A stretch of 64,000 nucleotides of DNA. It comes from a candidate division WWE3 bacterium CSP1-7. Lineage in GTDB: Bacteria; Patescibacteriota; WWE3; 9FT-COMBO-53-11. The position numbers and the translations under genes are program-made. Shown one piece after another: positions 5,076 to 50,043 of the stretch; the first letter of the stretch is position 1; each line of letters begins with the position of its first letter. The DNA lies in contig LDXK01000001.1 in NCBI GenBank assembly GCA_001443395.1, forward strand, positions 153,682 to 217,681, read 5' to 3'. Below the pieces are notes generated by a model. The model did not search any database. It worked only from the letters and a program-made list of their open reading frames with translations, and was not told the DNA's origin.

Positions 5076-5567
5076 CTAACCAGATTTCAACTCCTTGATC
5101 TTTTCGATCCGCTTCTCGGAATCCCCTTCTTTCTCCTCCGGCGCGCCGGAAACTTTCGAGCCGACTCCCGAAAACGCGCCCTTCACGATATAGAGAAGAA
5201 TCGCCGGCACGGCCGCCATTCCGGCGTAGGCGACGGAGAGGGTGTACTGGACCGGAACCAGCTTCACTCCAACCGCCAGCTGCTGGATCGCGTAAAGCTG
5301 GGCGAGCACCGCCGCTGCGAAAAGGAGCGTCGCTTTGAGAAAATACTGCTTCTCAATCAGCGAAGCGATCAGGAGCGTGAAGATTAGGAATCCCAGCGCC
5401 CGGACCCCGATCGCCACCGCCGTCAGTGGGTAGACCGAAAGATAAGACGGCGAGAGAAAAACGAGCTGGTTGGCGAGCTGCAGCTGCACCGGACCAGCAA
5501 AAGATTCCAGCACCGAAGAAAGGATCAAAAGCGCAATGGCGGCAACGACCCAATATTCCTTATTCAT
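5076..5567 (-). CDS. Integral membrane protein, unknown function
   Basis: 163 aa with about 4-5 hydrophobic helices and an acidic/lysine C-terminal tail. The overlapping ORF 5353..5553 is treated as a shadow. Confidence 0.55.
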   Translation of the reverse strand: MNKEYWVVAAIALLILSSVLESFAGPVQLQLANQLVFLSPSYLSVYPLTAVAIGVRALGFLIFTLLIASLIEKQYFLKATLLFAAAVLAQLYAIQQLAVGVKLVPVQYTLSVAYAGMAAVPAILLYIVKGAFSGVGSKVSGAPEEKEGDSEKRIEKIKELKSG

Positions 5568-7255: not shown

Positions 7256-7273
7256 GGTTTGGGAACAAGAAAC

Positions 7274-8746
7274 ATGGAAAAAACCAGGAAACTAATTAAC
7301 CGATTAACTAATAAACTGGTGCTGTTTGCACTCACTATCCTATTCCTACTCCTACTAATTACTTCTACCCTCTTCGCCGCGGGCGCAAAGCTCTTCCTCT
7401 CTCCGGAAACGGGAACCCAGTACGTCGGGTCCTATCTCTCGGTGGATGTGCTGGTGAACACCGGCGGTAACCCGACCAACGCCTACCGGGCGGTCGTCAC
7501 CTACCCCGCCGCCAAGCTGGAAGCGGTCGCGGTTTCGACCGGCGGTTCCGTCTGCTCACTCTGGATCCCACCGACGCCACGGTACTCCAACGACAGCGGC
7601 ACGGCCACTTTTGAGTGCGGGGCGACAAAGGCCTACAAGGGAACTTCCGGGCGGATCGGCCGGATCGATTTCCTCGTCAAGGCGGCGGGAAAGGCGGCGG
7701 TCAGCATCTCGGCCGGCGAGGTCAAAAAGGCCGACGGCATCGGCACGGAGCTCTTGAGTTCCCGGGGCGCCGCCTCCTTTGATCTGCAGGAAACACCGGT
7801 GGGAGTACCGGTGATTTCCTCTTCCACCCACCCGAACCAGAACGCCTGGTACCGGGAAAAATCGGTCGAACTGGCTTGGACGGCGACCGAGGAAGCGGAT
7901 GGATTTTCCTATTCCCTCAACCAAAAAGCCGGCGATACTCCCGACGACATCTCGGAAGGGCCGGCGGCCACCAAAACCTACCAGAACGACGACGGCATCT
8001 GGTATTTCCATCTCAAAGCCCGGCAGACGAGCGGCTGGAGTTTCACCGGCCATTTCCGGATCCAGATCGACAACGCCCCTCCGGAGCCCTTCACGATCGT
8101 GGTTGATCCGCCCACGGAGAAAATCACCCGCGCTCCCCTTCTCTCATTTGCCACCACGGATAAGCTCTCGGGGATCGACCACTACGAGATTGCCATTGAC
8201 GGGGCGGCTCCGCTGACCACGGCTAGCCCCTACCAGTTCGACCGGATCAAGGGCGGGATCCATCCCATCACCGTCCAGGCGATCGACCGGGCCGGCAACA
8301 GCCGGGAGGCCAAGGCCACGCTGGATGTGATCGGCGTTTCTTCCCCGACGATTACCAGCCCGACGGAAGGGGAAAAGATTCCTTTCCTCTCGCCCTTGAC
8401 GACAAGAGGCACTTCCTCCCAACCGGGAACGGTTGAGCTCGCTCTCGACGGCCGGCTCATCGCCGAAGTGAACAGCGGTACCGGAGATTTTGAACACAGC
8501 TACAGAAAGATAATCCTCCCCGGCAACCGCAAGCTGGAGGCAACTCTAATCACGGCGGAAGGAATCGAGAGCGAGCCGGCGACAGTCACTTTTCAGGTGG
8601 ACCTTAGCCGGGTCTATCTGCTCGGGTTGGTTCTCCCCGGCTATCCCGTCTACGCCGTCGCTCTGTTGATTTTCGCAGGATTGGCAACTCTCTTCATCCT
8701 GAAGATAAAGCGATGGAGGAGATTGCGAAAGCCGAAACAGATTTGA
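7274..8746 (+). CDS. Cohesin-domain surface protein with Ig-like repeats and a C-terminal TM anchor (paralog 1)
   Basis: The N-terminal TM/signal is followed by a cohesin-like module (LFLSPETGTQYVGSYLSVDVLVNTGGNPTNAY...FECG...GRIDFLVKAAG). Then come THPNQNAWY, DNAPPEPF, SGIDHYEI and AIDRAGN blocks and a C-terminal helix plus KRWRRLRK. An alternative TTG start lies at 7259. Confidence 0.75.
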   Translation: MEKTRKLINRLTNKLVLFALTILFLLLLITSTLFAAGAKLFLSPETGTQYVGSYLSVDVLVNTGGNPTNAYRAVVTYPAAKLEAVAVSTGGSVCSLWIPPTPRYSNDSGTATFECGATKAYKGTSGRIGRIDFLVKAAGKAAVSISAGEVKKADGIGTELLSSRGAASFDLQETPVGVPVISSSTHPNQNAWYREKSVELAWTATEEADGFSYSLNQKAGDTPDDISEGPAATKTYQNDDGIWYFHLKARQTSGWSFTGHFRIQIDNAPPEPFTIVVDPPTEKITRAPLLSFATTDKLSGIDHYEIAIDGAAPLTTASPYQFDRIKGGIHPITVQAIDRAGNSREAKATLDVIGVSSPTITSPTEGEKIPFLSPLTTRGTSSQPGTVELALDGRLIAEVNSGTGDFEHSYRKIILPGNRKLEATLITAEGIESEPATVTFQVDLSRVYLLGLVLPGYPVYAVALLIFAGLATLFILKIKRWRRLRKPKQI

Positions 8747-8822: not shown

Positions 8823-9752
8823 ATGTTCTTGAAAAAAGCCTTTAGAGCAGTTCTGGTTCTTTATAATCTAGTCTTGATTTCCCTGCTGTTGTTCACCGGA
8901 GTGGGGAACACTGGTAATCCCACCGATCGGCTGCTTCTCCTTCTTCTCTCTCCGATCGCGCTGTATTTCGCCCTCGGTTTCCTGCGGACGCTCGCCCGCC
9001 GAAAAATCCTCGCCGGACTGCACAACTTCGCCTTCACGCTGAGCCTGGCTTCCGCCAGCTTTCTTTTCTTCCTCAATGCCTGGAGCGCCACCATCTCGGC
9101 GGATTACCGCTTCGCCCTTCTGGTCCTACCGCTACCCCTCTACTTCTGGGGAACACTGCTGGGCCGTTTGATCCGAGCACTGCGGTCGCCGGAGGAAATC
9201 GGGCCCCAAAAACCAGAACCGGCGGTTTTGCAAGTACCAAAGGAGACCGCGGATTTCCACGAACACCGAACGGAACCAATTACCCTAGCCGAACCGGCGC
9301 TGGCGGAGGCGCCGGAGCCGGAGGAACAGCCGGTCGGCGATCCCAAGCGACGAGACTTTTTGAAGAAAGTCGGCGGAATCGGGCTGGGCCTCCTGACCTA
9401 CTCCCTTTTGAATCCCAAGCAGGCCGGAGCGGCCTTCTTCGGGAGCGTTCCCGGACCGGGAACGGTCGCGGTCAAGGACACCGCCGATGCCAAGATCGAT
9501 CCGGCGATCAAGGGGCTCCAGTCCGTCACGACCCAGTACGGCATCACCGAGATCGATGACGGCGACCCGGCCTACTACGGCTTCGTCAACAAGGACGGCG
9601 CCTGGTATATTTTGCAGGAAGATGAAACGACCGGAGACTACGCCTACCGCTATGCCTCTCCCACCAACAACCCCACCCTTCCGGATTTCACCGACGCGTG
9701 GGACGTCCACGACTCCACCCTCACCTACAACTACTTCGACGGCGCCTTCTAA
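8823..9752 (+). CDS. Membrane protein with an internal twin-arginine (Tat) signal-like segment and a small C-terminal extracytoplasmic domain
   Basis: About 4 N-terminal helices, a Pro/Glu-rich linker, then DPKRRDFLKKVGGIGLGLLTYSLLNPKQAGA|AFF. This matches the RRxFLK consensus plus an h-region plus AxA. The ATG at 8823 was chosen inside ORF 8757..9752. Confidence 0.6.
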   Translation: MFLKKAFRAVLVLYNLVLISLLLFTGVGNTGNPTDRLLLLLLSPIALYFALGFLRTLARRKILAGLHNFAFTLSLASASFLFFLNAWSATISADYRFALLVLPLPLYFWGTLLGRLIRALRSPEEIGPQKPEPAVLQVPKETADFHEHRTEPITLAEPALAEAPEPEEQPVGDPKRRDFLKKVGGIGLGLLTYSLLNPKQAGAAFFGSVPGPGTVAVKDTADAKIDPAIKGLQSVTTQYGITEIDDGDPAYYGFVNKDGAWYILQEDETTGDYAYRYASPTNNPTLPDFTDAWDVHDSTLTYNYFDGAF

Positions 9753-9769
9753 CCCATATTTAAACCCTA

Positions 9770-9799
9770 TTGATTTCTGCTTTCATTTTTTTCTACTAT
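9770..9799 (+). promoter_or_regulatory. Candidate sigma70-type promoter for the second tatA (TTGATT-N18-TACTAT)
   Basis: Motif spacing read from the sequence. It lies 44 nt upstream of the tatA ATG. Confidence 0.35.
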
Positions 9800-9842
9800 T
9801 AGGTTATATGCGAACAGCATACCTGAGAGGAGGTGATATGTA

Positions 9843-9986
9843 ATGTTGGGTGGAATGGGAACAACGGAATTGGTTTTCCTGTCGGCTTTCCTGTTGATTT
9901 TCTTCGGTGGTAAAAAACTTCCCGAGCTCGCGCGCGGTATTGGCGACTCGGTCCGAGAATTTCGCAGGGCCGTCAAGGAAGCCTAA
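9843..9986 (+). CDS. tatA: Twin-arginine translocase subunit TatA/E (47 aa), second copy
   Basis: Absent from the ORF track. Translation is MLGGMGTTELVFLSAFLLIFFGGKKLPELARGIGDSVREFRRAVKEA. A GAGAGGAGGTGA SD lies upstream. Confidence 0.8.
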   Translation: MLGGMGTTELVFLSAFLLIFFGGKKLPELARGIGDSVREFRRAVKEA

Positions 9987-10162
9987 GCGGAAGATCCATG
10001 AATCCGTGGAATAATTCCGCGACGGTCGCGCCCTGCCCATTGCCTTTGCCTCGAGAAAACGAAGTAAAGACAACGCGGGTTAGCCTCCAGTAAATTTCGC
10101 GCTTGAATTATTCCTAATACGTTTTCCGGAAGTCCGGTTTCGGACGGGTTTGTTGCACTCTA

Positions 10163-10196
10163 TTGGACGCTCCGATCAAAGCATCGGAGCTAACAA
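10163..10196 (+). repeat. Hairpin-core intergenic element, copy A1
   Basis: TTGGACG|CTCCGAT-caaagc-ATCGGAG|CTAACA. The 7-bp stem is perfect. Confidence 0.7.
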
Positions 10197-10212
10197 ATCT
10201 TGCCACGTTCGT

Positions 10213-10248
10213 TTGGACGGCTTCCGCCTTGAGCGGAAACCTAGTAAT
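10213..10248 (+). repeat. Hairpin-core intergenic element, copy A2 (in tandem with A1)
   Basis: TTGGACGGC|TTCCGC-cttga-GCGGAA|ACCTAGTAAT. Confidence 0.75.
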
Positions 10249-10305
10249 ATCCGCTTTGCGTCTATTGTACTGCCTCTCTCTATTAAGGTTTAATAGGGAC
10301 GGACG

Positions 10306-12117
10306 GTGAGCACATCTATGCGGACCAATTTCCTCCGGAAAATTAAAAGGGCGTTTCTGCCTTTGGTCGTTCTTGTCGCGCTGGTCCTTTCTCTCGCTCC
10401 CCTGCTGCCGGTCCTAGCCGGCAACGCCGTTCTCTACCTCTCTCCTTCGGGCGGGACTCGCTACGTCGGGTCGAGCTTTGCCGTTTCGGTTCGAATCAAC
10501 AGCGGCTCGCACACCACCAACGCCTACAAGGCGGTGGTAAAGTTTCCGACCGCCCTGCTCGCGGCCACCTCGGTTTCGGTGGGCGGTTCCATCTGCACTC
10601 TCCAGATCAGCGGCTCCCCCAGCTACTCCAACAGCAGTGGTACCGTTAATTTTGAGTGCGGTCACCCCGGCTCTTTCTCGGGAAGCGCCGGGATAATCGG
10701 GACCGTTACTTTCCTCGCCCGGGCGGCCGGCACCGCTAACCTGACCTTTACCTCCGCCTCCCAAGTGAAGGCGGCCGACGGTTTCGGCACCGAGGTCCTG
10801 GGATCCACCAGCGGCGCGATTTTCGACATCCAGCCGGCGCCGGTGAGCGGGCCGGCCGTTTCCTCCGCCACCCATCCCAACCAGGGTTCCTGGTACGCGC
10901 TCAAAGATGTCAGCCTAACTTGGAACCAACCGGCTGGTTCGGACGGCTTCTCCTACCTGCTCAATCAAAAATCCGGCACCATTCCTGATGGAGTCTCCGA
11001 AGGAACCGCAAAGGCCATCGGCTACGAGGGGCTAGCGGACGGAACCTGGTACTTCCACATCCGCGCCCACGGGGACGGCGGCTGGGGAAACACGACCCAC
11101 TTCCGGATCCGCATCGACACCACCCCGCCCGACCCCTTTGAAGTCACCTCAGAACCGCCGGCCGAGAACATCGATTCCGCACCGCTGATCATCGCCTCCG
11201 CCACCGACCGCCCCTCCGGCATTGACCACTACGAGATCTCCATCGATGGCGGCGACTTCGTCCCGGTTCCCGGAATGCCGTACCAGTACGAACGGATCCC
11301 GGAGGGAACCCACACCCTCACCGTCCGGGCGGTGGACAGGGCCGGCAACTACCGCGACAGCTCGCTGGTGATCCACGTGATTGATGTTGTAAACCCCCGC
11401 ATCACCCAACCCGCTAACGGTTCCTACCTCCCCATCCTGGAACAGCTGGTGATCAAGGGAACGGCACCGGCGGGACTGGTCGAGCTTTACCTCAACGGCG
11501 AGCTGATCGCCCAGATCGAGAGCGACGGGAACTTTGAGTTCACCCACAGCGCCTTCCTTCGACCGGGCCGGTATAAGCTTACGGCGATAGCGGTCACGGA
11601 CCGGGGCATCGTCAGCTCCCCCGCCGAAGTCCAGTTCACGGTGGATCCGCGAGCGGTTAGTCTCTTCGGCCTGAATCTCCCCGGCTGGCTGGTCTACAGC
11701 TTCCTGCTGGGGATCATCATCTTGCTCCTCATCCTCCTGATCCGCTATCTCCGCAAGGCCGCCGGCTTTGACGAGCACGTCCGCCAGGACCTGGATCGGA
11801 TCGAGGAGGAAGAGAAGAGGGACTTTGAACAGGCCGAGAAGGAAATGGAGCGGGCGGTCGAGGGAACGCTCGCCGGCCTGACCGAATCCCAGGTCCACCA
11901 GCTCGAACACGAGTTGGAGGAGAAGATCAGGGAATCCGAGGGGGAGGCTCGCGAGAAGCTGGAGGGAGAACTAGACCGGATCCGCCGCCATCACCCGCTG
12001 GCGGGGCGGAAATTCCGGTTTCCCCGGATTAAAATTCCCCGCTTCTTCCTCATCTTTTGGGAGAGGCGAAAGAAGAAAAAAGGAGAGAAAAAAAGAGGAA
12101 CCTACAGGAGATATTGA
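10306..12117 (+). CDS. Cohesin-domain surface protein (paralog 2) with a TM anchor and a charged coiled-coil cytoplasmic tail
   Basis: Collinear with 7274..8746 (cohesin-like module, THPNQGSWY, DTTPPDPF, SGIDHYEISIDG, AVDRAGN). A TM helix follows, then an E/K/R-rich tail of about 120 aa. GTG start, with an alternative ATG at 10318. Confidence 0.75.
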   Translation: MSTSMRTNFLRKIKRAFLPLVVLVALVLSLAPLLPVLAGNAVLYLSPSGGTRYVGSSFAVSVRINSGSHTTNAYKAVVKFPTALLAATSVSVGGSICTLQISGSPSYSNSSGTVNFECGHPGSFSGSAGIIGTVTFLARAAGTANLTFTSASQVKAADGFGTEVLGSTSGAIFDIQPAPVSGPAVSSATHPNQGSWYALKDVSLTWNQPAGSDGFSYLLNQKSGTIPDGVSEGTAKAIGYEGLADGTWYFHIRAHGDGGWGNTTHFRIRIDTTPPDPFEVTSEPPAENIDSAPLIIASATDRPSGIDHYEISIDGGDFVPVPGMPYQYERIPEGTHTLTVRAVDRAGNYRDSSLVIHVIDVVNPRITQPANGSYLPILEQLVIKGTAPAGLVELYLNGELIAQIESDGNFEFTHSAFLRPGRYKLTAIAVTDRGIVSSPAEVQFTVDPRAVSLFGLNLPGWLVYSFLLGIIILLLILLIRYLRKAAGFDEHVRQDLDRIEEEEKRDFEQAEKEMERAVEGTLAGLTESQVHQLEHELEEKIRESEGEAREKLEGELDRIRRHHPLAGRKFRFPRIKIPRFFLIFWERRKKKKGEKKRGTYRRY

Positions 12118-12141
12118 GAAAAGGGGGGTAGGGTTTAGGGT

Positions 12142-12180
12142 CTAGAAAGAAGGAGCCAACTCAGTTAGAAGTTGGGACAA
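12142..12180 (-). repeat. Second, divergent copy of the last 12 codons plus stop of hrcA
   Basis: The minus strand reads TTG TCC CAA CTT CTA ACT GAG TTG GCT CCT TCT TTC TAG, which is LSQLLTELAPSF*. This peptide is identical to the hrcA C-terminus. The 7 nt differences are all synonymous third-position changes. Confidence 0.85.
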
Positions 12181-12220
12181 TTGGACGGCTCGCTTCGCGA
12201 ACCTAGCATTTATCCCAACT
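12181..12220 (+). repeat. Hairpin-core intergenic element, copy A3, with a tail complementary to hrcA codons
   Basis: TTGGACGGC|TCGC-ttc-GCGA|ACCTAGCATT. Positions 12207..12220 (CATTTATCCCAACT) are the perfect reverse complement of 12247..12260. Confidence 0.8.
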
Positions 12221-12947
12221 AGAAGGATGGGGCTAATTCAGTTAGGAGTTGGGATAAATGTCTAACCTGTGGGACAACCACTGGATAGTTGAGGCGGGCC
12301 GGCCCCAAAACCGCGACCACTCCCCCTTTCTGCCCGTTGCCCCAGTGAGAAAAAACCAAACCGACCGGCTCCAGGTTCGCCACTCCCAGCTCCCTCCCAA
12401 TCAGAACCGTGACCGCTTTGGGATCGGAGGCGCGGGAAAAGAGATCCTGCAGGAGATCAAAACTGTCCAAAAGGTTCAGCGCCGCTCGGGTCACGTTGAT
12501 ATCAAAGAATTCAGGATGCTCCAAGACGTTTTTCGTGCCGGCGTGGAAAACCGTTCCTTCATGTGTGGTGACAATGCCGATGTAGCCGGCGGCTTCCGCC
12601 AGGGCCAGGGCCGCTTCCCGCAGCATCCGCCCGGAACTCTGCCGGTACTGAAAAAGGCGCTGTTTCAGCGCCACTTCCTGCAAAACCGGAATCGCCTGCT
12701 CCTGCATTAATGAGGTCAGGAAATAGCGTAGCCCCAACTCGGAGGGGCGGCGGCCGGCGGAAGAGTGTTCCTTTTCGATAAATCCCTCCCGATGCAGGAT
12801 CGCCATCTCGTTCCGCACCGTCGCCGGCGAGAAAGCAAACTGGCGCTTTTCGGTCAGATCCTCCGAACCGATCGGCTGGGCACCGGCAATAAATTCCTCA
12901 ATGATTGCTTTCAAAATGTCGACCTGTCTCGCAGTGAGTTCCGCCAT
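12219..12947 (-). CDS. hrcA: Heat-inducible transcription repressor HrcA (short form, 242 aa)
   Basis: N-terminal winged-helix signature LTARQVDILKAIIEEF...PIGSEDL...SPATVRNEMAILHREGFIEKEHSSAGRRPSELGLRYFL. Confidence 0.85.
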   Translation of the reverse strand: MAELTARQVDILKAIIEEFIAGAQPIGSEDLTEKRQFAFSPATVRNEMAILHREGFIEKEHSSAGRRPSELGLRYFLTSLMQEQAIPVLQEVALKQRLFQYRQSSGRMLREAALALAEAAGYIGIVTTHEGTVFHAGTKNVLEHPEFFDINVTRAALNLLDSFDLLQDLFSRASDPKAVTVLIGRELGVANLEPVGLVFSHWGNGQKGGVVAVLGPARLNYPVVVPQVRHLSQLLTELAPSF

Positions 12948-12951
12948 GTTG

Positions 12952-12978
12952 TTAGCATTTTAACCAAATGATTGATAA
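12952..12978. promoter_or_regulatory. Degenerate CIRCE-like inverted repeat (TTAGCATTT-N9-GATTGATAA)
   Basis: It matches the CIRCE consensus TTAGCACTC-N9-GAGTGCTAA at 14 of 18 arm positions with the exact 9-nt spacer. It lies 5 nt upstream of the hrcA start codon. Confidence 0.5.
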
Positions 12979-13030
12979 AAAAGCAAAAATAAACAAACCC
13001 GAAGGGTTAAAATCCGCAACCCTTCGGGTT
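12975..13030 (-). terminator. Rho-independent terminator of the methyltransferase gene
   Basis: AACCCGAAGGGTT...AACCCTTCGGGTT forms a 13-bp stem. On the minus strand it is followed by TGTTTATTTTTGCTTTTTT. Confidence 0.65.
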
Positions 13031-13044
13031 AGAACGCTCATTCA

Positions 13045-13635
13045 TCAACGTCGGGCAAAGAGATCCAAGAAAACGACATGGCTAGGAACTTCGGACAGAA
13101 GAAGTACTTCGAATCCGGCTTCTCGCGCCAATCGCGCCAACTCCTCAGCGTGGTAGTAGGCGGAGAAAGTCCCTTTCTCGTTGAACCCCTGCCCTTCTCC
13201 CTCCTTCACACTCAGGTAGAGGAAGCCGCCGGGAGATAGGACTCGGTGGATCTCCCGCATCGTCGCCAGTGCTTCCCGGTGCGGAATGTGCAAGAAGGAA
13301 GCACACGCCCAGGCCCCATGAAATGATCCGGCCGCAAATCCTAACCGGCGGATGTCCATCTGGACAAACCGGGCCCGCGGGACCAGGCTCTGGGCGATGT
13401 CGAGGAGTTCGGACGAGAGATCTACTCCCGTCACCTCACAACCCATCTCCCTAAAAGACTTCGCGTCCCGGCCGGGTCCGCAGCCTAGATCCAACACGCG
13501 CGTCCCGACCAAGTTCGTCGAAAAGAGCTCGCGCTGCCGAGCCATCACGGAGGAATCCAACCAATGGGAGGCGTATTCCTCGGCAGACTCGTCGTAGCGC
13601 CGGATGGTTTCAGCCACCGGATCGGACAGTGCCAT
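13045..13635 (-). CDS. Class I SAM-dependent methyltransferase
   Basis: Motif I VLDLGCGPGRDA, motif post-I VTGVDLS, 196 aa. Confidence 0.8.
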   Translation of the reverse strand: MALSDPVAETIRRYDESAEEYASHWLDSSVMARQRELFSTNLVGTRVLDLGCGPGRDAKSFREMGCEVTGVDLSSELLDIAQSLVPRARFVQMDIRRLGFAAGSFHGAWACASFLHIPHREALATMREIHRVLSPGGFLYLSVKEGEGQGFNEKGTFSAYYHAEELARLAREAGFEVLLLSEVPSHVVFLDLFARR

Positions 13636-17817: not shown

Positions 17818-17890
17818 TGGACGGCCGCCTGCGGCGACCTAGATTCGGTGAATGGCCGAATAACGGCCGCCTGCGGCGATCTAACATTTT
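17817..17890 (+). repeat. Tandem pair of hairpin-core elements (A4a 17817..17845, A4b 17852..17890)
   Basis: A4a is ATGGACGGC|CGCC-tgc-GGCG|ACCTAGATT. A4b is ...ACGGC|CGCC-tgc-GGCG|ATCTAACATTTT. The 21-nt core repeats with a 42-nt period. Confidence 0.8.
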
Positions 17891-18462: not shown

Positions 18463-18480
18463 ATGAGATGATTGGTTACT

Positions 18481-18565
18481 TTTGCAAAGCAAAATTGCAA
18501 CCGAGCGTAGCGAGGACAGCACATTTGCAAAGCAAAATTGCAACCGAGCGTAGCGAGGACAGCAC
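18481..18565 (+). repeat. Perfect tandem duplication of a 42-nt unit (18481..18522 and 18524..18565)
   Basis: The unit is TTTGCAAAGCAAAATTGCAACCGAGCGTAGCGAGGACAGCAC, present twice and separated by one A. The pair is flanked by a perfect 15-nt direct repeat, AGATGATTGGTTACT, at 18466..18480 and 18576..18590. Confidence 0.9.
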
Positions 18566-23044: not shown

Positions 23045-24043
23045 CTAATATCCAAGTGCTTTGAGGCCGGGGAGTTCTTTGCCGGCGAGAAATTCCAGCA
23101 TCGCTCCCCCGCCCATCGAAACGTACCCCATTTTTTCAAGCAGGCCGAAGGCCGAAAGTGCCGCAATCGTGTCCCCTCCGCCGACAATCGTCTTGCCAGG
23201 ATGCTCGGCCAAGGACTTCGCCACCGCTCTCGTTCCCGCGGCATACTTATCATCCTCCCACTTACCCATTGGTCCGTTCCAAACCACCGTCTTTGCGTTC
23301 TTGACTATTTCGGTAAACTTCTTCTCGGTTTCCGGCCCGATATCAAAAGTCTCAACGGCGTCTACCGGGAAAACGGCCCGGGTGATTTTTCTCAAACTCT
23401 GGTCAAACATCAGGAGACCCCCGAGGAGAACAGAATCGGCCACTTCCGCAAAGTTGGAAACCAGCGGCGCTTTCGTCTCGGTTTTTGCCCCTCCCAGGAT
23501 AAAAACCAGCGGCCGTTCCGGATTTTCCAGCACTCCGCCAAGTTCTTTTACTTCTTCCGCCAACCGCAAACCGGCATAGGCCGGAAGGTGCTGCGGAACG
23601 CCGGCGATCGAGGCGTGAGCGCGATGAGAAGCGGCAAAGGAATCATTGACGTAAAGGTCGCCCAGCTCCGCCAATTCCTGGGCAAATTTCGGATCGTTTT
23701 CTTCCTCGCCCTCCCAAAAACGCAAGTTCTCCAAAACCGATGCCCGATTCTCCGATTCTCCAATTCTCAAATCCTCAAAAAACCCCACCTTTTCCCCAAG
23801 TTCTTTTGAAAACCAATCCGCAATCGGTTTTAAAGACAGGGCGGGATTAAGCTTCCCCTCGGGGCGTCCGGCGTGGCCAATGATCAAAACCTGCGCTCGA
23901 TTCTCCAACAAATAATTGAGAGTAGGAACAAGGGCTTTGATACGATAATCCTCTCCCACCTCCCCGTCTTTGATCGGTACGTCAAGATCACCTCGCAGCA
24001 GAACCCGCTTTCCCGAAAGTTCCGCCTCTTTAAGGATTTTCAT
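23045..24043 (-). CDS. pgk: Phosphoglycerate kinase
   Basis: MKILKEAELSGKRVLLRGDLDVP..., GGAKTETK, GGGD. The start was set at the internal ATG at 24043, because the ORF track's N-terminal 18 aa overlap the upstream gene. Confidence 0.95.
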   Translation of the reverse strand: MKILKEAELSGKRVLLRGDLDVPIKDGEVGEDYRIKALVPTLNYLLENRAQVLIIGHAGRPEGKLNPALSLKPIADWFSKELGEKVGFFEDLRIGESENRASVLENLRFWEGEEENDPKFAQELAELGDLYVNDSFAASHRAHASIAGVPQHLPAYAGLRLAEEVKELGGVLENPERPLVFILGGAKTETKAPLVSNFAEVADSVLLGGLLMFDQSLRKITRAVFPVDAVETFDIGPETEKKFTEIVKNAKTVVWNGPMGKWEDDKYAAGTRAVAKSLAEHPGKTIVGGGDTIAALSAFGLLEKMGYVSMGGGAMLEFLAGKELPGLKALGY

Positions 24044-24674
24044 TTCCTTCCTGATTTTCCTCGGTAATAAATCGCAGACTCTTTCCCATTTCTTCAAAGA
24101 TCACCGCGTAATCCGCTTCGCCGTATTTATTCCAAGCCAGTGTGAAATCATTCTCTCCTTTTGCAAAGAAGATGATTTCTTTTTCAGGAGTGGTAATTCG
24201 TTCACCATAGATATCGTTGGCAAAGAAACTGCAGGCGGATTGGTCGCTCTCGCAGGCGGTTTTACCGCGAGCGGCGTTGGAGGACACGGACAGGCTGACA
24301 TAGTCTTTCGGCAAGATCTCGCCTTCCTGTTGAGCTTTCGGTTGAAAAGTTATCAAAGAGGTATTGGCTTCGGTTGCCTCCCAATTATCAGGGTAGCGAA
24401 GGCCCAGACCGTGAGTTTCGCTGCGGTACACCAACCAGTTTTCGTAGGGATTGGGACCGGCTAGGAAAGAGGCAGGAACATAGCGCTGCCAGAGCACCAC
24501 CGCCAGATAGCCGGCGGAAAAAACCACCGCGGTTGCCAGGATGAAAAGGAGGGCAAGGCCAGCCCTTCGCCAAGTAACTCGGCGTTTGGGCTTGGTCTCA
24601 ATCTCTTTTGATTCGTAAGACCTCTTGACGGAATCGGTAGCTTTTTCCTCCTCGCCAGAGATTTCGGAATCCAC
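24030..24674 (-). CDS. Membrane-anchored hypothetical protein
   Basis: Acidic N-terminus, one TM (LALLFILATAVVFSAGYLAVVLW), and an ectodomain of about 140 aa. GTG start. It lies between gap and pgk. Confidence 0.55.
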   Translation of the reverse strand: MDSEISGEEEKATDSVKRSYESKEIETKPKRRVTWRRAGLALLFILATAVVFSAGYLAVVLWQRYVPASFLAGPNPYENWLVYRSETHGLGLRYPDNWEATEANTSLITFQPKAQQEGEILPKDYVSLSVSSNAARGKTACESDQSACSFFANDIYGERITTPEKEIIFFAKGENDFTLAWNKYGEADYAVIFEEMGKSLRFITEENQEGNENP

Positions 24675-24830: not shown

Positions 24831-24878
24831 TTAAGCTTTAATCAGACTTCCGACCCGGATCACGTGCTCGACTAGCGC
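24831..24878 (-). repeat. Second, divergent copy of the 3' terminal codons of gap
   Basis: The minus strand reads GCG CTA GTC GAG CAC GTG ATC CGG GTC GGA AGT CTG ATT AAA GCT TAA, which is ALVEHVIRVGSLIKA*. The gap C-terminus is ALVEHVVRVGNLISK*. Of 10 differences in the 13 aligned codons, 8 are synonymous third-position changes. Confidence 0.85.
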
Positions 24879-24882
24879 GTTT

Positions 24883-24940
24883 GAGGACGGCTTGCCTGCG
24901 GCAAACCTAGCTCCGCTGAATTTTGGATACCAAACTAAAC
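24883..24940 (+). repeat. Hairpin-core intergenic element, copy A5, with a long tail abutting the gap stop codon
   Basis: GAGGACGGC|TTGCC-tgc-GGCAA|ACCTAGCTCCGCTGAATTTTGGATACCAAACTAAAC. The tail is about 70% identical to 50052..50090. Confidence 0.8.
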
Positions 24941-25954
24941 CTACTTGGAGATTAGATTTCCAACCCGGACGACGTGTTCAACCAGTGCAGCGGAGTAGCC
25001 CCACTCATTATCGTACCAAGCAAGAACTTTAACCAAATCGCCGTCCACCACCCGCGTCATTGCCAGATCGACAATTGAGGCGTGCGGATCTTTGATGATA
25101 TCCGAGGAAACGATCGGATCTTCCGTCACTGCCAGGACCTTTTCCCAGCGGGGGTCTTGGGAGGCATCCTTAAGGATCTTGTTGACCTCCACCACGGAGG
25201 TCTTGCGTTTGGCCAAAAATGTAAAGTCCACAATCGAACCGCAGACCACCGGGACTCGCAGCGCAATTCCATCGAAGAGGCCCTCCAAACCATTGAGAGA
25301 CTTGACGACCGACTCCGCCGCTCCGGTGGAAGATGGAACAATGTTCATCGCCGCTGCCCTTCCCCGCCGGGGATCTTTGGTGGCCGGCCCATCCACCAAA
25401 CTCTGCGTCGCAGTGTAACCGTGGGCGGTGTTAAGCATTCCCTTGATCACGCCGATTTTTTCCATCATCACCGCCGCCACGGGAACGGCCGCGTTGGTGG
25501 TGCAGGAAGCGTTGCAGGTCACCAGCGGAAGATCGCCTGTGAAGAGCGCATCGTTGGCGCCAATGAGGGCGTAGGGCACATTCCCCTTGGCCGGAGCGGT
25601 GATGACCACCCGCTTGGCGCCGGCCTTGATATGCTTTTCGGCCTCTTCAAGTTCATCGAACCGGCCGGTGGATTCAACGACAACATCAATATCCATCTCT
25701 TTCCAAGGCAAAAGTCCGGGGTCTTTTTCGGAAAGGATTTTGATCTTTTTGCCACCGACTACCAAGCTTCCGTCAGAGATCTTAACTTCCTTGTCGTAGC
25801 GCCCGTAAACAGTGTCGTAGCGCAGAAGGTAGGCCAGTGTCTCCGGCTCGCCCAGGTCGTTGATCGCCACAAATTCAAGCTCCGGCCGCTCAAAGGCAAT
25901 TTTGAAAAAGGCCCGACCGATCCGGCCGAAGCCGTTAATCGCAACTCGGGTCAC
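24941..25954 (-). CDS. gap: Type I glyceraldehyde-3-phosphate dehydrogenase
   Basis: RVAINGFGRIGR, SCTTN active site, WYDNEWGYS. The GTG start at 25954 forms a GTGA overlap with the trx stop. Confidence 0.95.
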   Translation of the reverse strand: MTRVAINGFGRIGRAFFKIAFERPELEFVAINDLGEPETLAYLLRYDTVYGRYDKEVKISDGSLVVGGKKIKILSEKDPGLLPWKEMDIDVVVESTGRFDELEEAEKHIKAGAKRVVITAPAKGNVPYALIGANDALFTGDLPLVTCNASCTTNAAVPVAAVMMEKIGVIKGMLNTAHGYTATQSLVDGPATKDPRRGRAAAMNIVPSSTGAAESVVKSLNGLEGLFDGIALRVPVVCGSIVDFTFLAKRKTSVVEVNKILKDASQDPRWEKVLAVTEDPIVSSDIIKDPHASIVDLAMTRVVDGDLVKVLAWYDNEWGYSAALVEHVVRVGNLISK

Positions 25955-26217
25955 AGCTGTTCCTCCACCCACCGTTTGAACTCCTCTTTAGGACGGGCGC
26001 CGGTGGTTCGCGCCACTTCCTTGCCATCTTTTTCAATCACGTAGGTGGGGATCGACATCACGCCGTACTTTTGGGCCATCTCACCCTGAGCATCCACATC
26101 GTATGCCACAAATTCCGCCTTGCCGGCGAGTTCTTTTTCCAGCTCCTCAATCGTGGGTTTCATCACATTGCAGGGTGGACACCAAGTCGCCCAAAAATCC
26201 AAAACTTTAACCGCCAT
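25951..26217 (-). CDS. trxA: Thioredoxin-fold protein with a WCPPC active site (88 aa)
   Basis: MAVKVLDFWATWCPPCNVMKP...MSIPTYVIEKDGKEV. The start is set at the internal ATG at 26217. Confidence 0.8.
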   Translation of the reverse strand: MAVKVLDFWATWCPPCNVMKPTIEELEKELAGKAEFVAYDVDAQGEMAQKYGVMSIPTYVIEKDGKEVARTTGARPKEEFKRWVEEQL

Positions 26218-32069: not shown

Positions 32070-32125
32070 CATTGTTTAAAGCTTCGCTTTAACAAATAAG
32101 CTCCTCGCTACGCTGCGGGTGCTTA

Positions 32126-32164: not shown

Positions 32165-32209
32165 ATGGACGGCTCGATCAAGCGAGCCTAGCATTTTGAA
32201 AGAACCAAA
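32165..32209 (+). repeat. Hairpin-core intergenic element, copy A7, inside the csoR 5' leader
   Basis: ATGGACGGC|TCG-atcaag-CGA|GCCTAGCATTTTGAAAGAACCAAA. It ends at the csoR ATG. Confidence 0.8.
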
Positions 32210-47738: not shown

Positions 47739-47791
47739 GGCTTAAGTTTAACAAACGGAGTTTGCTAGATCGCTGAAGGCGGTCGTCCAAA
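47739..47791 (-). repeat. Hairpin-core intergenic element, copy A8 (minus orientation), with its tail ending at the PEGA gene start codon
   Basis: The minus strand reads TTGGACGAC|CGC-cttca-GCG|ATCTAGCAAACTCCGTTTGTTAAACTTAAGCC, followed by GTG. Confidence 0.7.
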
Positions 47792-49245: not shown

Positions 49246-50043
49246 CTAGACGCGTTTAAACCAGAGGATCCCGGAAATCGGGGCGTCCCGGCGCTGATGG
49301 ACTAGTGCAAATCCTTGCCGGAGAAGGAAATCCGTCAAATCTTCCTGATTGGTGCGCTTCCCCGGGAGCACGTGGTACTCGAGACGAATTTCCTTGATCT
49401 TTTTTAAAATATCGGCTGGGGTTCGGTAGAGAATCTCGTACTCGGCGCCCTCGCAATCAAGTTTTAAAAGATCGATTGCCTTGAGGTGATTTTCCTCAAA
49501 AATATCTTGGAGAGTCACACACGTCACCGCAATCTTATCGCCGTGGCGGGAAAAGAAAGAGCTCAACGGAGAGAAACGCGTTAAGAAAAATGTTCGCTTC
49601 CCCGCCCGCCCGGCTACCCCCAACTCAAATGGCTCGATTTTGCCCTCTAACCTGTTGACTCTAATATTTTGAGACAGGAGATAGAAAGAATAAGTCGCGG
49701 GTTCATAGGCCAAAACTTTAGCCCCCTGCTGAGCGGCATAAAGCGAAAATGATCCCAAACTCGCCCCGACGTCCACCACGACCGAACCCTTTGATACCTT
49801 ACCGTAATCTCTGCGGACAAAGGTTCCGATGATCTCCTCTATCTCAACCCACTGCGCGTAACGCATGGCCAACCCGTTGCGGAAAATAAAAAGTCCTTCG
49901 GTTTCAGATCGGGTTATAAACCGCCAAAGAACTTTCGGCCAATTCTTAAGCAGAAAAATTAGACCGAGAGTGTATCGAAGTCTTTTCGTCAAATCTTTCA
50001 CTTTGCGAGAGCAAATTGCAACCGAGCGTAGCGAGGACAGCAC
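49246..50043 (-). CDS. FkbM-family SAM-dependent methyltransferase
   Basis: VVDVGASLGSFSLYAAQQGAKVLAYEP...FELGVAG. The first 14 codons of the ORF-track version lie inside the repeat at 50001..50043. An in-frame GTG at 50001 is an alternative start. Confidence 0.75.
   Translation of the reverse strand: MLSSLRSVAICSRKVKDLTKRLRYTLGLIFLLKNWPKVLWRFITRSETEGLFIFRNGLAMRYAQWVEIEEIIGTFVRRDYGKVSKGSVVVDVGASLGSFSLYAAQQGAKVLAYEPATYSFYLLSQNIRVNRLEGKIEPFELGVAGRAGKRTFFLTRFSPLSSFFSRHGDKIAVTCVTLQDIFEENHLKAIDLLKLDCEGAEYEILYRTPADILKKIKEIRLEYHVLPGKRTNQEDLTDFLLRQGFALVHQRRDAPISGILWFKRV

Follow-up and report, generated by a model that had tools for sequence, protein, structure and literature searches.

Why should a conserved bacterial gene carry its own end twice? 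The question is raised by hrcA in a 64,000-nt stretch of the genome of the candidate division WWE3 bacterium CSP1-7 (Patescibacteria; GCA_001443395.1, contig LDXK01000001.1, positions 153,682–217,681, forward strand; hereafter the window), in which the 3′ end of the gene recurs a short distance downstream on the far side of a hairpin. The hrcA locus is the site of insertion of a small, non-coding, double-hairpin mobile element belonging to a family that populates this WWE3 genome. At hrcA, the 5′ arm and loop of the first hairpin amount to a full foreign version of the final 13 codons and the stop codon, so that translation terminates normally within the element. The resident gene end, moved 77 nt downstream, has ceased to be translated. 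We think it likely that elements of this kind bring a foreign gene end with them and spread between lineages by homologous recombination, and that their hairpin unit also transposes.

The hrcA coding sequence (12219..12947, minus strand; 242 aa; Pfam HrcA, E = 1e-16) ends in the proximal copy, which reads TTA TCC CAA CTC CTA ACT GAA TTA GCC CCA TCC TTC TAG (12257..12219, minus strand). After 38 nt follows the distal copy, TTG TCC CAA CTT CTA ACT GAG TTG GCT CCT TCT TTC TAG (12180..12142), giving a period of 77 nt. Both encode LSQLLTELAPSF and a stop. As the initial annotation had reported, 7 of the 39 nt differ and every difference is a synonymous third-position change; six are transitions (from proximal to distal, three A>G, three C>T and one A>T). 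The similarity reaches one codon further upstream (CAT vs CAA), where an eighth third-position difference, this time non-synonymous (H to Q), falls on the conserved CGTC-CA end of the hairpin element.

Read along the sense strand of hrcA, the parts can be written X-A1-B1-A1′-[CTAG-GC hairpin-CGTC]-A2-B2, where A1-B1 is the translated gene end, A1′ an inverted copy of A1, and A2-B2 the displaced resident end. The proximal gene end (12219..12257, minus strand, as are all features of the locus given here), which we call the alpha module, lies within the inserted DNA and provides the functional C-terminus and stop codon. A1 (CATTTATCCCAACT, 12247..12260) covers the 14 nt with which the duplicated block opens and forms the 5′ arm of hairpin 1. 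The 3′ arm, A1′ (AGTTGGGATAAATG, 12207..12220), overlaps the stop codon by 2 nt, adjoins CTAG and is a perfect inverted copy of A1 (14/14), exactly as first described. Next come the hairpin-2 core (CTAG-GTTCGC-GAA-GCGAGC-CGTC, 12184..12206), with conserved flanks and a variable, covarying stem, and A2 (CAATTGTCCCAACT, 12170..12183), a direct repeat of A1 where the displaced copy begins. The displaced gene end (12142..12180) is untranslated and mosaic, and contains a terminator-like hairpin (CCAACTT-CTAACT-GAGTTGG, 12156..12175) followed by a T-rich run. Compared with shuffled sequences the duplicated region has a folding z score of −4.0, both as RNA and as DNA, and its dominant fold consists of the A1:A1′ stem that had been predicted plus a 7-bp GC hairpin; A2 and A1′ could pair instead into an alternative long hairpin with the core at its tip (minimum free energy fold).

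The duplication is real and not an assembly error, because it is carried by all 10 of the contigs inspected, which come from independent assemblies, encode the exact HrcA protein and show small variants among themselves. In public assemblies of different samples (JGI, ENA and Logan), 22 or more contigs encode this protein. Nor does the distal copy belong to another open reading frame (ORF), its frame being open for only ~31 codons between convergent genes. Two concerns voiced at the outset, mis-assembly and a distal copy that is part of a different translated gene, are thereby removed.

Relatives from candidate division WWE3, represented by retrieved contigs with L-numbers, reveal which of the two ends is the newcomer. 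L012, whose HrcA is 92% identical, has a single gene end followed directly by ACCCTAAACCC, as after the distal copy of the window. The site is also empty in L033, with a different flank, and the insertion is absent from more distant relatives too (L014–16, L036, L041 and L088–90). These empty sites, which the initial annotation had proposed to look for, indicate that the proximal copy and the hairpins are the inserted DNA and the distal copy the displaced resident end, a configuration that fits the gene-end replacement it had entertained.

The inserted end has a history of its own. The alpha module (CAT TTA TCC CAA CTC CTA ACT GAA TTA GCY CCW TCC TTY) occupies the proximal position in the window and in L013 and the distal one in L011, with 2–4 nt differences among the three and flanking DNA that is 20–30% diverged. 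From the distal copies and native ends with which it was compared, the distal copy of the window excepted, it differs at 11–14 of 42 nt. Alpha-like native ends are found in L088 and L089, and the distal copies of L006 and L035 (the latter contig carrying a proximal module that we call gamma, as we call that of L011 beta) cluster with the native end of L012. A module common to the window, L013 and L011 upholds the suggestion that the element spreads together with the 3′ end of its host gene.

The synonymous character of the differences follows from this origin. The C-terminus of HrcA (VVPQVR-H/Y-x-x-QLLTEL-x-x-SF) is conserved down to ~75% overall identity, and native hrcA ends differ across lineages at 7–14 of 42 nt; where the peptide is the same all differences are synonymous, and otherwise at most two codons are affected. 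The native ends of L012 and L033 differ at 10 positions, all synonymous, so that true orthologous ends show the same pattern that had been attributed to divergence under coding constraint in different lineages. All differences are likewise synonymous between the proximal copy of the window and the distal copy of L006 (14) and between the two copies of L013 (12). The two hrcA copies are orthologous ends that come from different lineages and encode a peptide under very strong purifying selection, and this is why their differences are synonymous. No decaying duplicate could accumulate 12–14 changes without a single non-synonymous one.

Is hrcA alone in this? We scanned the window and L001–L073 for ORFs whose last 12 residues are found again within 260 nt downstream, as had been recommended for the whole genome, and recovered hrcA and gap alone, the repeats flanking a hairpin element in both. 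The gap coding sequence (GAPDH; 24941..25972, minus strand; Pfam Gp_dh_N and Gp_dh_C) closes with a foreign proximal end, its last 17 codons and stop (SAALVEHVVRVGNLISK and stop, 24941–24994, minus strand). The insert downstream of it (24886..24940, minus strand) consists of a 22-nt spacer (24919–24940), an A1′ of CAGCGGAG (24911–24918) that is the inverted copy of CTCCGCTG (24988–24995), and a hairpin-2 core, CTAGGTTTGCCGCAGGCAAGCCGTC (24886–24910). Beyond it lies the displaced end (SNALVEHVIRVGSLIKA and stop, 24831..24884, minus strand), which equals the C-terminus of P0001, a GAPDH allele 97% identical to that of the window that sits on contig L079 and has no insertion. Relative to L079 the insertion amounts to 110 nt (24882–24991). 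The proximal end of the window terminates in ISK and so resembles the distant lineage L083, while close relatives terminate in IKA.

Over its first 13 nt the distal gap copy departs from L079, for instance in a serine codon (TCA vs AGC). There follow 518 nt without a single mismatch to L079, starting 10 nt inside the distal copy, next to a gene body that is ~3.5% diverged. The N-terminal part of pgk (window 23650–24070) is far more diverged from L079 than the adjacent genes. With this divergence beside a 518-nt mismatch-free block, recombinational mosaicism is intense in this population.

The initial annotation had described the hrcA insert as a copy of a hairpin element, and further members of the family are indeed present in the window. 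The family consensus is (A/T)TG-CTAG(GT)-variable GC hairpin-(GC)CGTC-CA. In gene sense, an element consists of hairpin 1 (a 5′ arm beginning CAWW, a loop, and a 3′ arm ending WWTG), CTAG(GT), hairpin 2 and (GC)CGTC, after which the opening nucleotides of the 5′ arm of hairpin 1 are usually repeated in direct orientation. The 40-nt hrcA insert itself is unique in the window, the family being detectable through its conserved flanks only. Copies lie at 10165, 10215, 12183, 17819, 17861, 24885, 32167 and 47765, and there are at least 10 per 64 kb, often at gene boundaries and sometimes within genes. Nine of the ten window copies are on one strand, and GC skew is uniform. Two tandem copies (10165–10193 and 10215–10244, minus strand) stand between tatA and an immunoglobulin (Ig)-like gene, and two others (17819–17842 and 17861–17884, minus strand) between two plus-strand genes, hairpin 1 of the second including the complement of the downstream start codon. 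The copy at 32167..32191 (minus strand) similarly has a hairpin 1 of CATTTTG/CAAAATG that includes the complement of a plus-strand start codon, and the sole copy in the opposite orientation (47765..47788, plus strand) lies just upstream of the start of a minus-strand gene.

In 18 of 22 cores CTAG is directly preceded by a perfect hairpin-1 arm of 5 nt or more, an arrangement found at 17% of random positions. The stems of hairpin 2 are GC-rich, variable and covarying: 17 cores from the window and relatives have 15 different stems, two of which occur in two copies each, and all fold. The strand reading from CTAG to CGTC folds better (summed minimum free energy −194 vs −158 kcal/mol) and is the one that carries the G·T pairs. 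Direct repeats of about 5 to 70 nt flank the copies, and the conserved ends, TGCTAGG and CCGTCCA, are weakly inverted. An Rfam search of 11800–12600 returned chance-level matches only (E > 2), and none of 46 pattern matches in the IMG/VR viral collection had the hairpin architecture.

Copies in other positions show that duplication around the element is not confined to gene ends. In L089 an element sits in the 8-nt overlap of two genes with ~16 nt duplicated around it, the upstream gene ending in the proximal copy and the downstream gene starting in the distal one; four relatives have this junction empty. The start codon and leader of nusA are duplicated likewise in L013 and L089, with L036 and L016 empty. 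L013 also holds a copy in-frame in infB (5279–5345), in the G domain of IF2, adding 16 residues (REAFNARSAESGSSVR) to an intact ORF of 510 aa; these residues are absent from L036 (5082–5180) and L016 (3210–3308). In-frame insertion alleles of hrcA were not encountered among 72 homologues. The infB copy and the window copy at 10215 have the whole double hairpin (~55 nt) in common at unrelated loci, and the 10215 copy is absent in strain L006, a case of presence/absence within the species. The hairpin unit is therefore genuinely mobile and not only carried along by homologous exchange.

Homologous exchange has nevertheless left its own traces. The sample is a mixture of strains, with L001, L006, L007 and L008 as co-occurring variants, and over 3.8 kb L006 is ~100% identical to the window except for a patch of ~50 nt that replaces hairpin 2, by a different hairpin, and the first eight codons of the distal copy. 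The distal copy of the window is alpha-like in its first 27 nt, and its last 15 nt and downstream flank match the distal copy of L006. The window, L011 and L013 have the same hairpin-2 core, and L035 has it with 1 nt changed, although the intergenic flanks are unalignable; L013 pairs a 12-codon-type A1′ with a 23-codon distal copy, a hybrid that implies a crossover within the shared core. A1 is the left edge of the duplication in every case, A1′ covaries with it in other lineages, and the two match at 14/14 positions in alpha, 11/11 in gamma, 8/8 at gap and 13/15 in beta. A2 pairs poorly with A1′ in some cases (4/8 at gap, 5/8 in L011).

We infer from these mosaics how the cassette may spread. 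It is bordered by conserved coding sequence of one and the same gene, the body on the left and the displaced end on the right, which makes entry into naive alleles by homologous recombination possible. DNA taken up from another lineage would integrate into a naive hrcA or gap by ordinary recombination, A1-B1-A1′-hairpin 2 looping in and the right-hand crossover being forced into the short displaced copy. The birth of a cassette is the least certain step. The hairpin unit may transpose to non-homologous sites as a folded single strand, and A1′ may then arise by fold-back or template-switch synthesis at insertion or, alternatively, act by guide pairing with the cleavage or target sequence, as in ends of the IS200/IS605 type. 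Within genes, insertions would survive only if the duplicated segment reaches the stop codon, selection accounting for why intragenic insertions always duplicate up to it. Two variants of these ideas were rejected. A snap-back (self-primed) origin of A1′ fits the order of the parts and conflicts with the loop GACGCRAAGCG conserved between the 10215 and infB copies, and an IS608-like model with a cut 3′ of A1 is ruled out at gap, where A1 itself is foreign.

Several observations sit uneasily with recombinational spread of a gene-end cassette. The empty site of L012 could in principle be a secondary deletion between direct repeats, against which speaks the absence of the insertion from all more distant relatives. 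At gap the recombination tract could run in either direction, with import of the gene body or of the downstream block. One and the same hairpin 2 goes with three matched A1/A1′ pairs that differ from each other, which calls for repeated births or re-templating of A1′. L006 does not serve as the exact pre-insertion site of the 10215 copy, the flanks differing by a further 7 nt, unlike a clean excision. None of the insertions found was newborn, with proximal and distal copies still identical, and the proximal copy was either foreign at birth or became so only after later transfer. Finally, the window ORFs inspected (from about 2 to 64 kb) yielded no transposase, recombinase, HUH/Y1 enzyme or reverse transcriptase, the enzyme candidates being an AddA-like helicase-nuclease and RmuC only.

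The last of these points bears equally on an alternative that we regard as possible though doubtful, in which guide-directed single-strand transposition is the whole story and homologous recombination minor. A HUH/Y1-type enzyme, IS200/IS605- or REP-RAYT-like, would cut and paste or copy the cassette, with A1′-A1 pairing setting the left cut and pairing of A1′ with A in a naive gene setting the target, and the gene end would have been captured once, when the guide came to pair inside the gene. Such a scheme would explain much of the architecture: A1, linker and A1′ directly 5′ of a conserved hairpin foot mirror the left ends of IS608, the conserved CTAG 5′ of a GC hairpin recalls the GTAG of repetitive extragenic palindromic (REP) sequences, A1:A1′ is perfect in each independent module (14/14, 11/11 and 8/8), insertion is always at the position homologous to A1, where the left boundary of the foreign DNA is sharp, the strand bias is 9:1 with G·T pairs on one strand, and the unit moves between non-homologous loci. 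It does not explain why donor-type sequence runs 13–27 nt beyond the supposed right end into the distal copy, nor the poor A2-A1′ pairing at gap and in L011; guides of 8–14 nt would far exceed those known from IS608 (4 nt), the window yielded no Y1/HUH gene, and the L013 hybrid and L006 patch need recombination anyway. Extended further, the family would be a non-autonomous, sequence-guided single-strand element whose A1′ base pairing programs both excision and target, which captures a gene end or start when the guide changes and then homes harmlessly into that gene in other lineages, served by a trans-acting hairpin-specific enzyme. We hold this extension to be rather unlikely; if true, it would amount to a miniature programmable gene-end cassette system in bacteria of the candidate phyla radiation (CPR).

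Local duplication, in which insertion of a hairpin with replication slippage or flap ligation produces a long target-site duplication whose identical copies then diverge in place, would account for the duplications of variable length (5–70 nt) that flank many copies, and L007 has a further, near-identical 41-nt tandem duplication at the same place; template switching can, moreover, make perfect inverted copies in one step (PMC10710096). An untranslated displaced copy should, however, change at all codon positions, and even with only the proximal copy constrained the probability that all seven changes fall on third positions is ~0.01, quite apart from the 14 and 12 purely synonymous differences involving the L006 and L013 distal copies. 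The distal gap copy is identical to a living allele, and the same proximal module recurs in three diverged lineages. Local duplication is therefore disfavored as an explanation of the differences and on the whole improbable. A similarly low probability attaches to a functional RNA device, in which alternative folds (A1:A1′ vs A1′:A2 plus core) terminate, stabilize or attenuate hrcA and gap transcripts and selection maintains the duplication. Strong folding (z = −4) with two competing folds, the terminator-like hairpin and T-rich run of the distal copy, the covarying hairpin-2 stems and the position of copies at gene boundaries would all suit such a device, but Rfam has no match, no U tract follows hairpin 2, the A1′:A2 pairing is not conserved, one copy lies inside infB, and presence/absence is polymorphic among close relatives and strains; a function may add to mobility, yet it leaves the foreign origin of the proximal copy unexplained. 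An assembly chimera of two strains, a diversity-generating retroelement (DGR) with its template and variable repeats, or an invertible or phase-variable segment might have been suspected in a strain mixture, in which the repeat lies at the 3′ end of a gene like a variable repeat and a relative encodes the DGR accessory protein bAvd. This reading is refuted: 10 of 10 independent assemblies show the structure, the substitutions spare first and second codon positions and are not specific to adenine, quite contrary to a DGR, the window yielded no reverse transcriptase, and none of the contigs inspected shows an inverted 26-nt segment.

The initial annotation also held that no known mechanism gives this pattern, and here it was mistaken. 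According to PMC13626634, citing Hill et al. 1989, prophage e14 (and phage 21) of Escherichia coli inserts into icd with a foreign, mostly synonymously different 3′ end, leaving the gene intact and the resident end as an untranslated icdC fragment beyond the insert. The empty sites and module sharing described above likewise point to a foreign inserted gene end with the resident end displaced beyond the insert. Unlike e14, which is 15 kb long with its own integrase and a defined att core, the inserts here are 38–111 nt, non-coding, composed of two hairpins and found in several genes; those of hrcA (77 nt, the period) and gap (110 nt) contain no ORF and hence encode no integrase or endonuclease. 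A second precedent is provided by mitochondrial mobile endonuclease ORFs (mORFs; in Allomyces atp6 and Glomus atp6, atp9, cox2 and nad3), which carry a foreign C-terminus in the order gene core, inserted foreign C-terminus, mobile element and native C-terminus (PMC3630166). In those genes the native copy matches close relatives and the inserted copy is diverged and horizontally acquired, and the authors note reshuffling of 3′ ends (PMC3630166). The order of core, foreign end, element and native end is the same here; the mORFs are, however, organellar and encode the homing endonuclease that drives them, whereas our elements have no ORF and a CPR bacterial host.

Other short repeats resemble the family in part. 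Rickettsia palindromic elements (RPE) and other intragenic MITEs (transposable elements of the miniature inverted-repeat kind) are short palindromic repeats tolerated in-frame in protein-coding genes. The infB copy, in-frame in an intact conserved gene, is analogous, without a sequence relationship and in different taxa; to our knowledge RPEs bring no replacement gene end and leave none displaced. The double-hairpin build also recalls the mitochondrial double-hairpin elements. Ends of IS200/IS605 elements, MITE derivatives and REP/RAYT systems have hairpins with conserved flanks (GTAG in REPs) and no fixed target-site duplication. The family recalls IS200/IS605 and REPs in the tetranucleotide (CTAG) 5′ of a GC hairpin, a short segment 5′ of the foot that can pair upstream, and strand bias. 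It differs in its widely varying stems, a paired segment of 5–14 nt instead of 4, direct repeats of variable length and some intragenic copies, and the window yielded neither a Y1 transposase nor a RAYT. Template-switch mutation, or quasipalindrome correction, can create a perfect inverted copy of neighboring sequence in one event (PMC10710096), and A1′ is such a copy. Unlike the products of template switching alone, the hairpin core and foreign gene end are imported, and the inverted copy always abuts the CTAG side.

Four more specific candidates were tried and discarded. The hrcA differences are not confined to adenines, as a DGR would require, since they include three C>T changes and all fall on third positions; no reverse transcriptase was found among the window ORFs. 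A classical MITE derived from an insertion sequence does not fit flanking repeats of ~5–70 nt in place of a fixed short target-site duplication, with ends that are only weakly inverted. An integron attC site, in which RYYYAAC and GTTRRRY core sites flank an imperfect palindrome in that order, is contradicted by the order of the motifs here, GTTGGGA preceding TCCCAAC on both strands, which is the reverse of the order expected, and by their presence in the hrcA copy only and not at gap or elsewhere. As an intrinsic terminator, hairpin 2 would need a U tract where CCGTCCAATT follows, and only the secondary hairpin in the distal copy is terminator-like. Our literature search found no description of a non-coding double-hairpin gene-end element of this kind. 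That a mobile element can supply a substitute gene end is thus already known; that it does so through a non-coding double hairpin of 38–111 nt appears to be new, as do the inverted copy at the junction and the recurrence, in a CPR bacterium, at the ends, starts and junctions of genes.

The element offers one way in which a non-coding repeat of a few dozen bases can be tolerated in essential, conserved genes (hrcA, gap and infB) of the compact genomes of Patescibacteria, namely by bringing a replacement for what its insertion interrupts. The displaced end would serve as a built-in homology arm, opening a route between diverged lineages through DNA uptake and recombination, a simple way of spreading for selfish DNA where classical transposons are scarce. 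Gene 3′ ends beside such elements are chimeric; they can mislead phylogenies and estimates of dN/dS, and they mark recombination breakpoints. Were the inverted arm a guide, the family would represent a new kind of programmable DNA insertion system.

Some smaller features accompany the hrcA locus. A third, partial copy of the region in L007 (6252–6360) takes the form of a 41-nt tandem duplication that covers hairpin 2 in its 3′ half and the distal hrcA copy in its first 30 nt. Two single-nucleotide polymorphisms that segregate among other contigs distinguish the units, and the extra one may be due to unequal crossing-over or to the assembler threading two haplotypes. Telomere-like heptamers (ACCCTAA/CCCTAAA; GGGTATA-type on the other strand) lie 3′ of the displaced end at 12118–12141. 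They recur in L004, L012 and L089, either 3′ of hrcA or 5′ of nusA, and vary in copy number by strain, L004 having one extra unit. Between a methyltransferase gene and the start of hrcA (12996–13030, minus strand) there is a strong 14-bp terminator-like hairpin with a T-rich run.

A reading of the element as a mini-ORF (ATG GAC GG...) was rejected, as neither frame nor length is conserved. The opposite strand of the element could be read as a putative promoter (TTGGAC-N17/18-TAGCAT), but a consensus scan of 9700–13200 returned no sigma-70-like site, and several copies have spacers of 22–23 nt in this reading. At least five copies have the promoter-like TTGGAC...TAGCAT 14–45 nt upstream of the start of a gene. 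At hrcA (12181–12209, plus strand) it would point antisense into the gene, where an antisense ORF of 150 aa starts at 12258.

Elsewhere in the window, 7259–8746 and 10306–12117 hold paralogous genes for Ig-like/cohesin-dockerin-type surface proteins, which have in common several stretches of 50–80 nt at 73–79% identity, ~3047 nt apart. The bAvd gene mentioned above occurs in L088 among homologues of these genes. A second repeat family has a 43-nt unit that includes TTTGCAAAGCAAAATTGCAACCGAGCGTAGCGAGGACAGC, present in tandem at 18478–18563 and again at 49999–50041. Its CGAGCGTAGCGAGG motif also adjoins some copies of the hairpin element, and related sequences occur near 32110 and in L035 (5810–5835).

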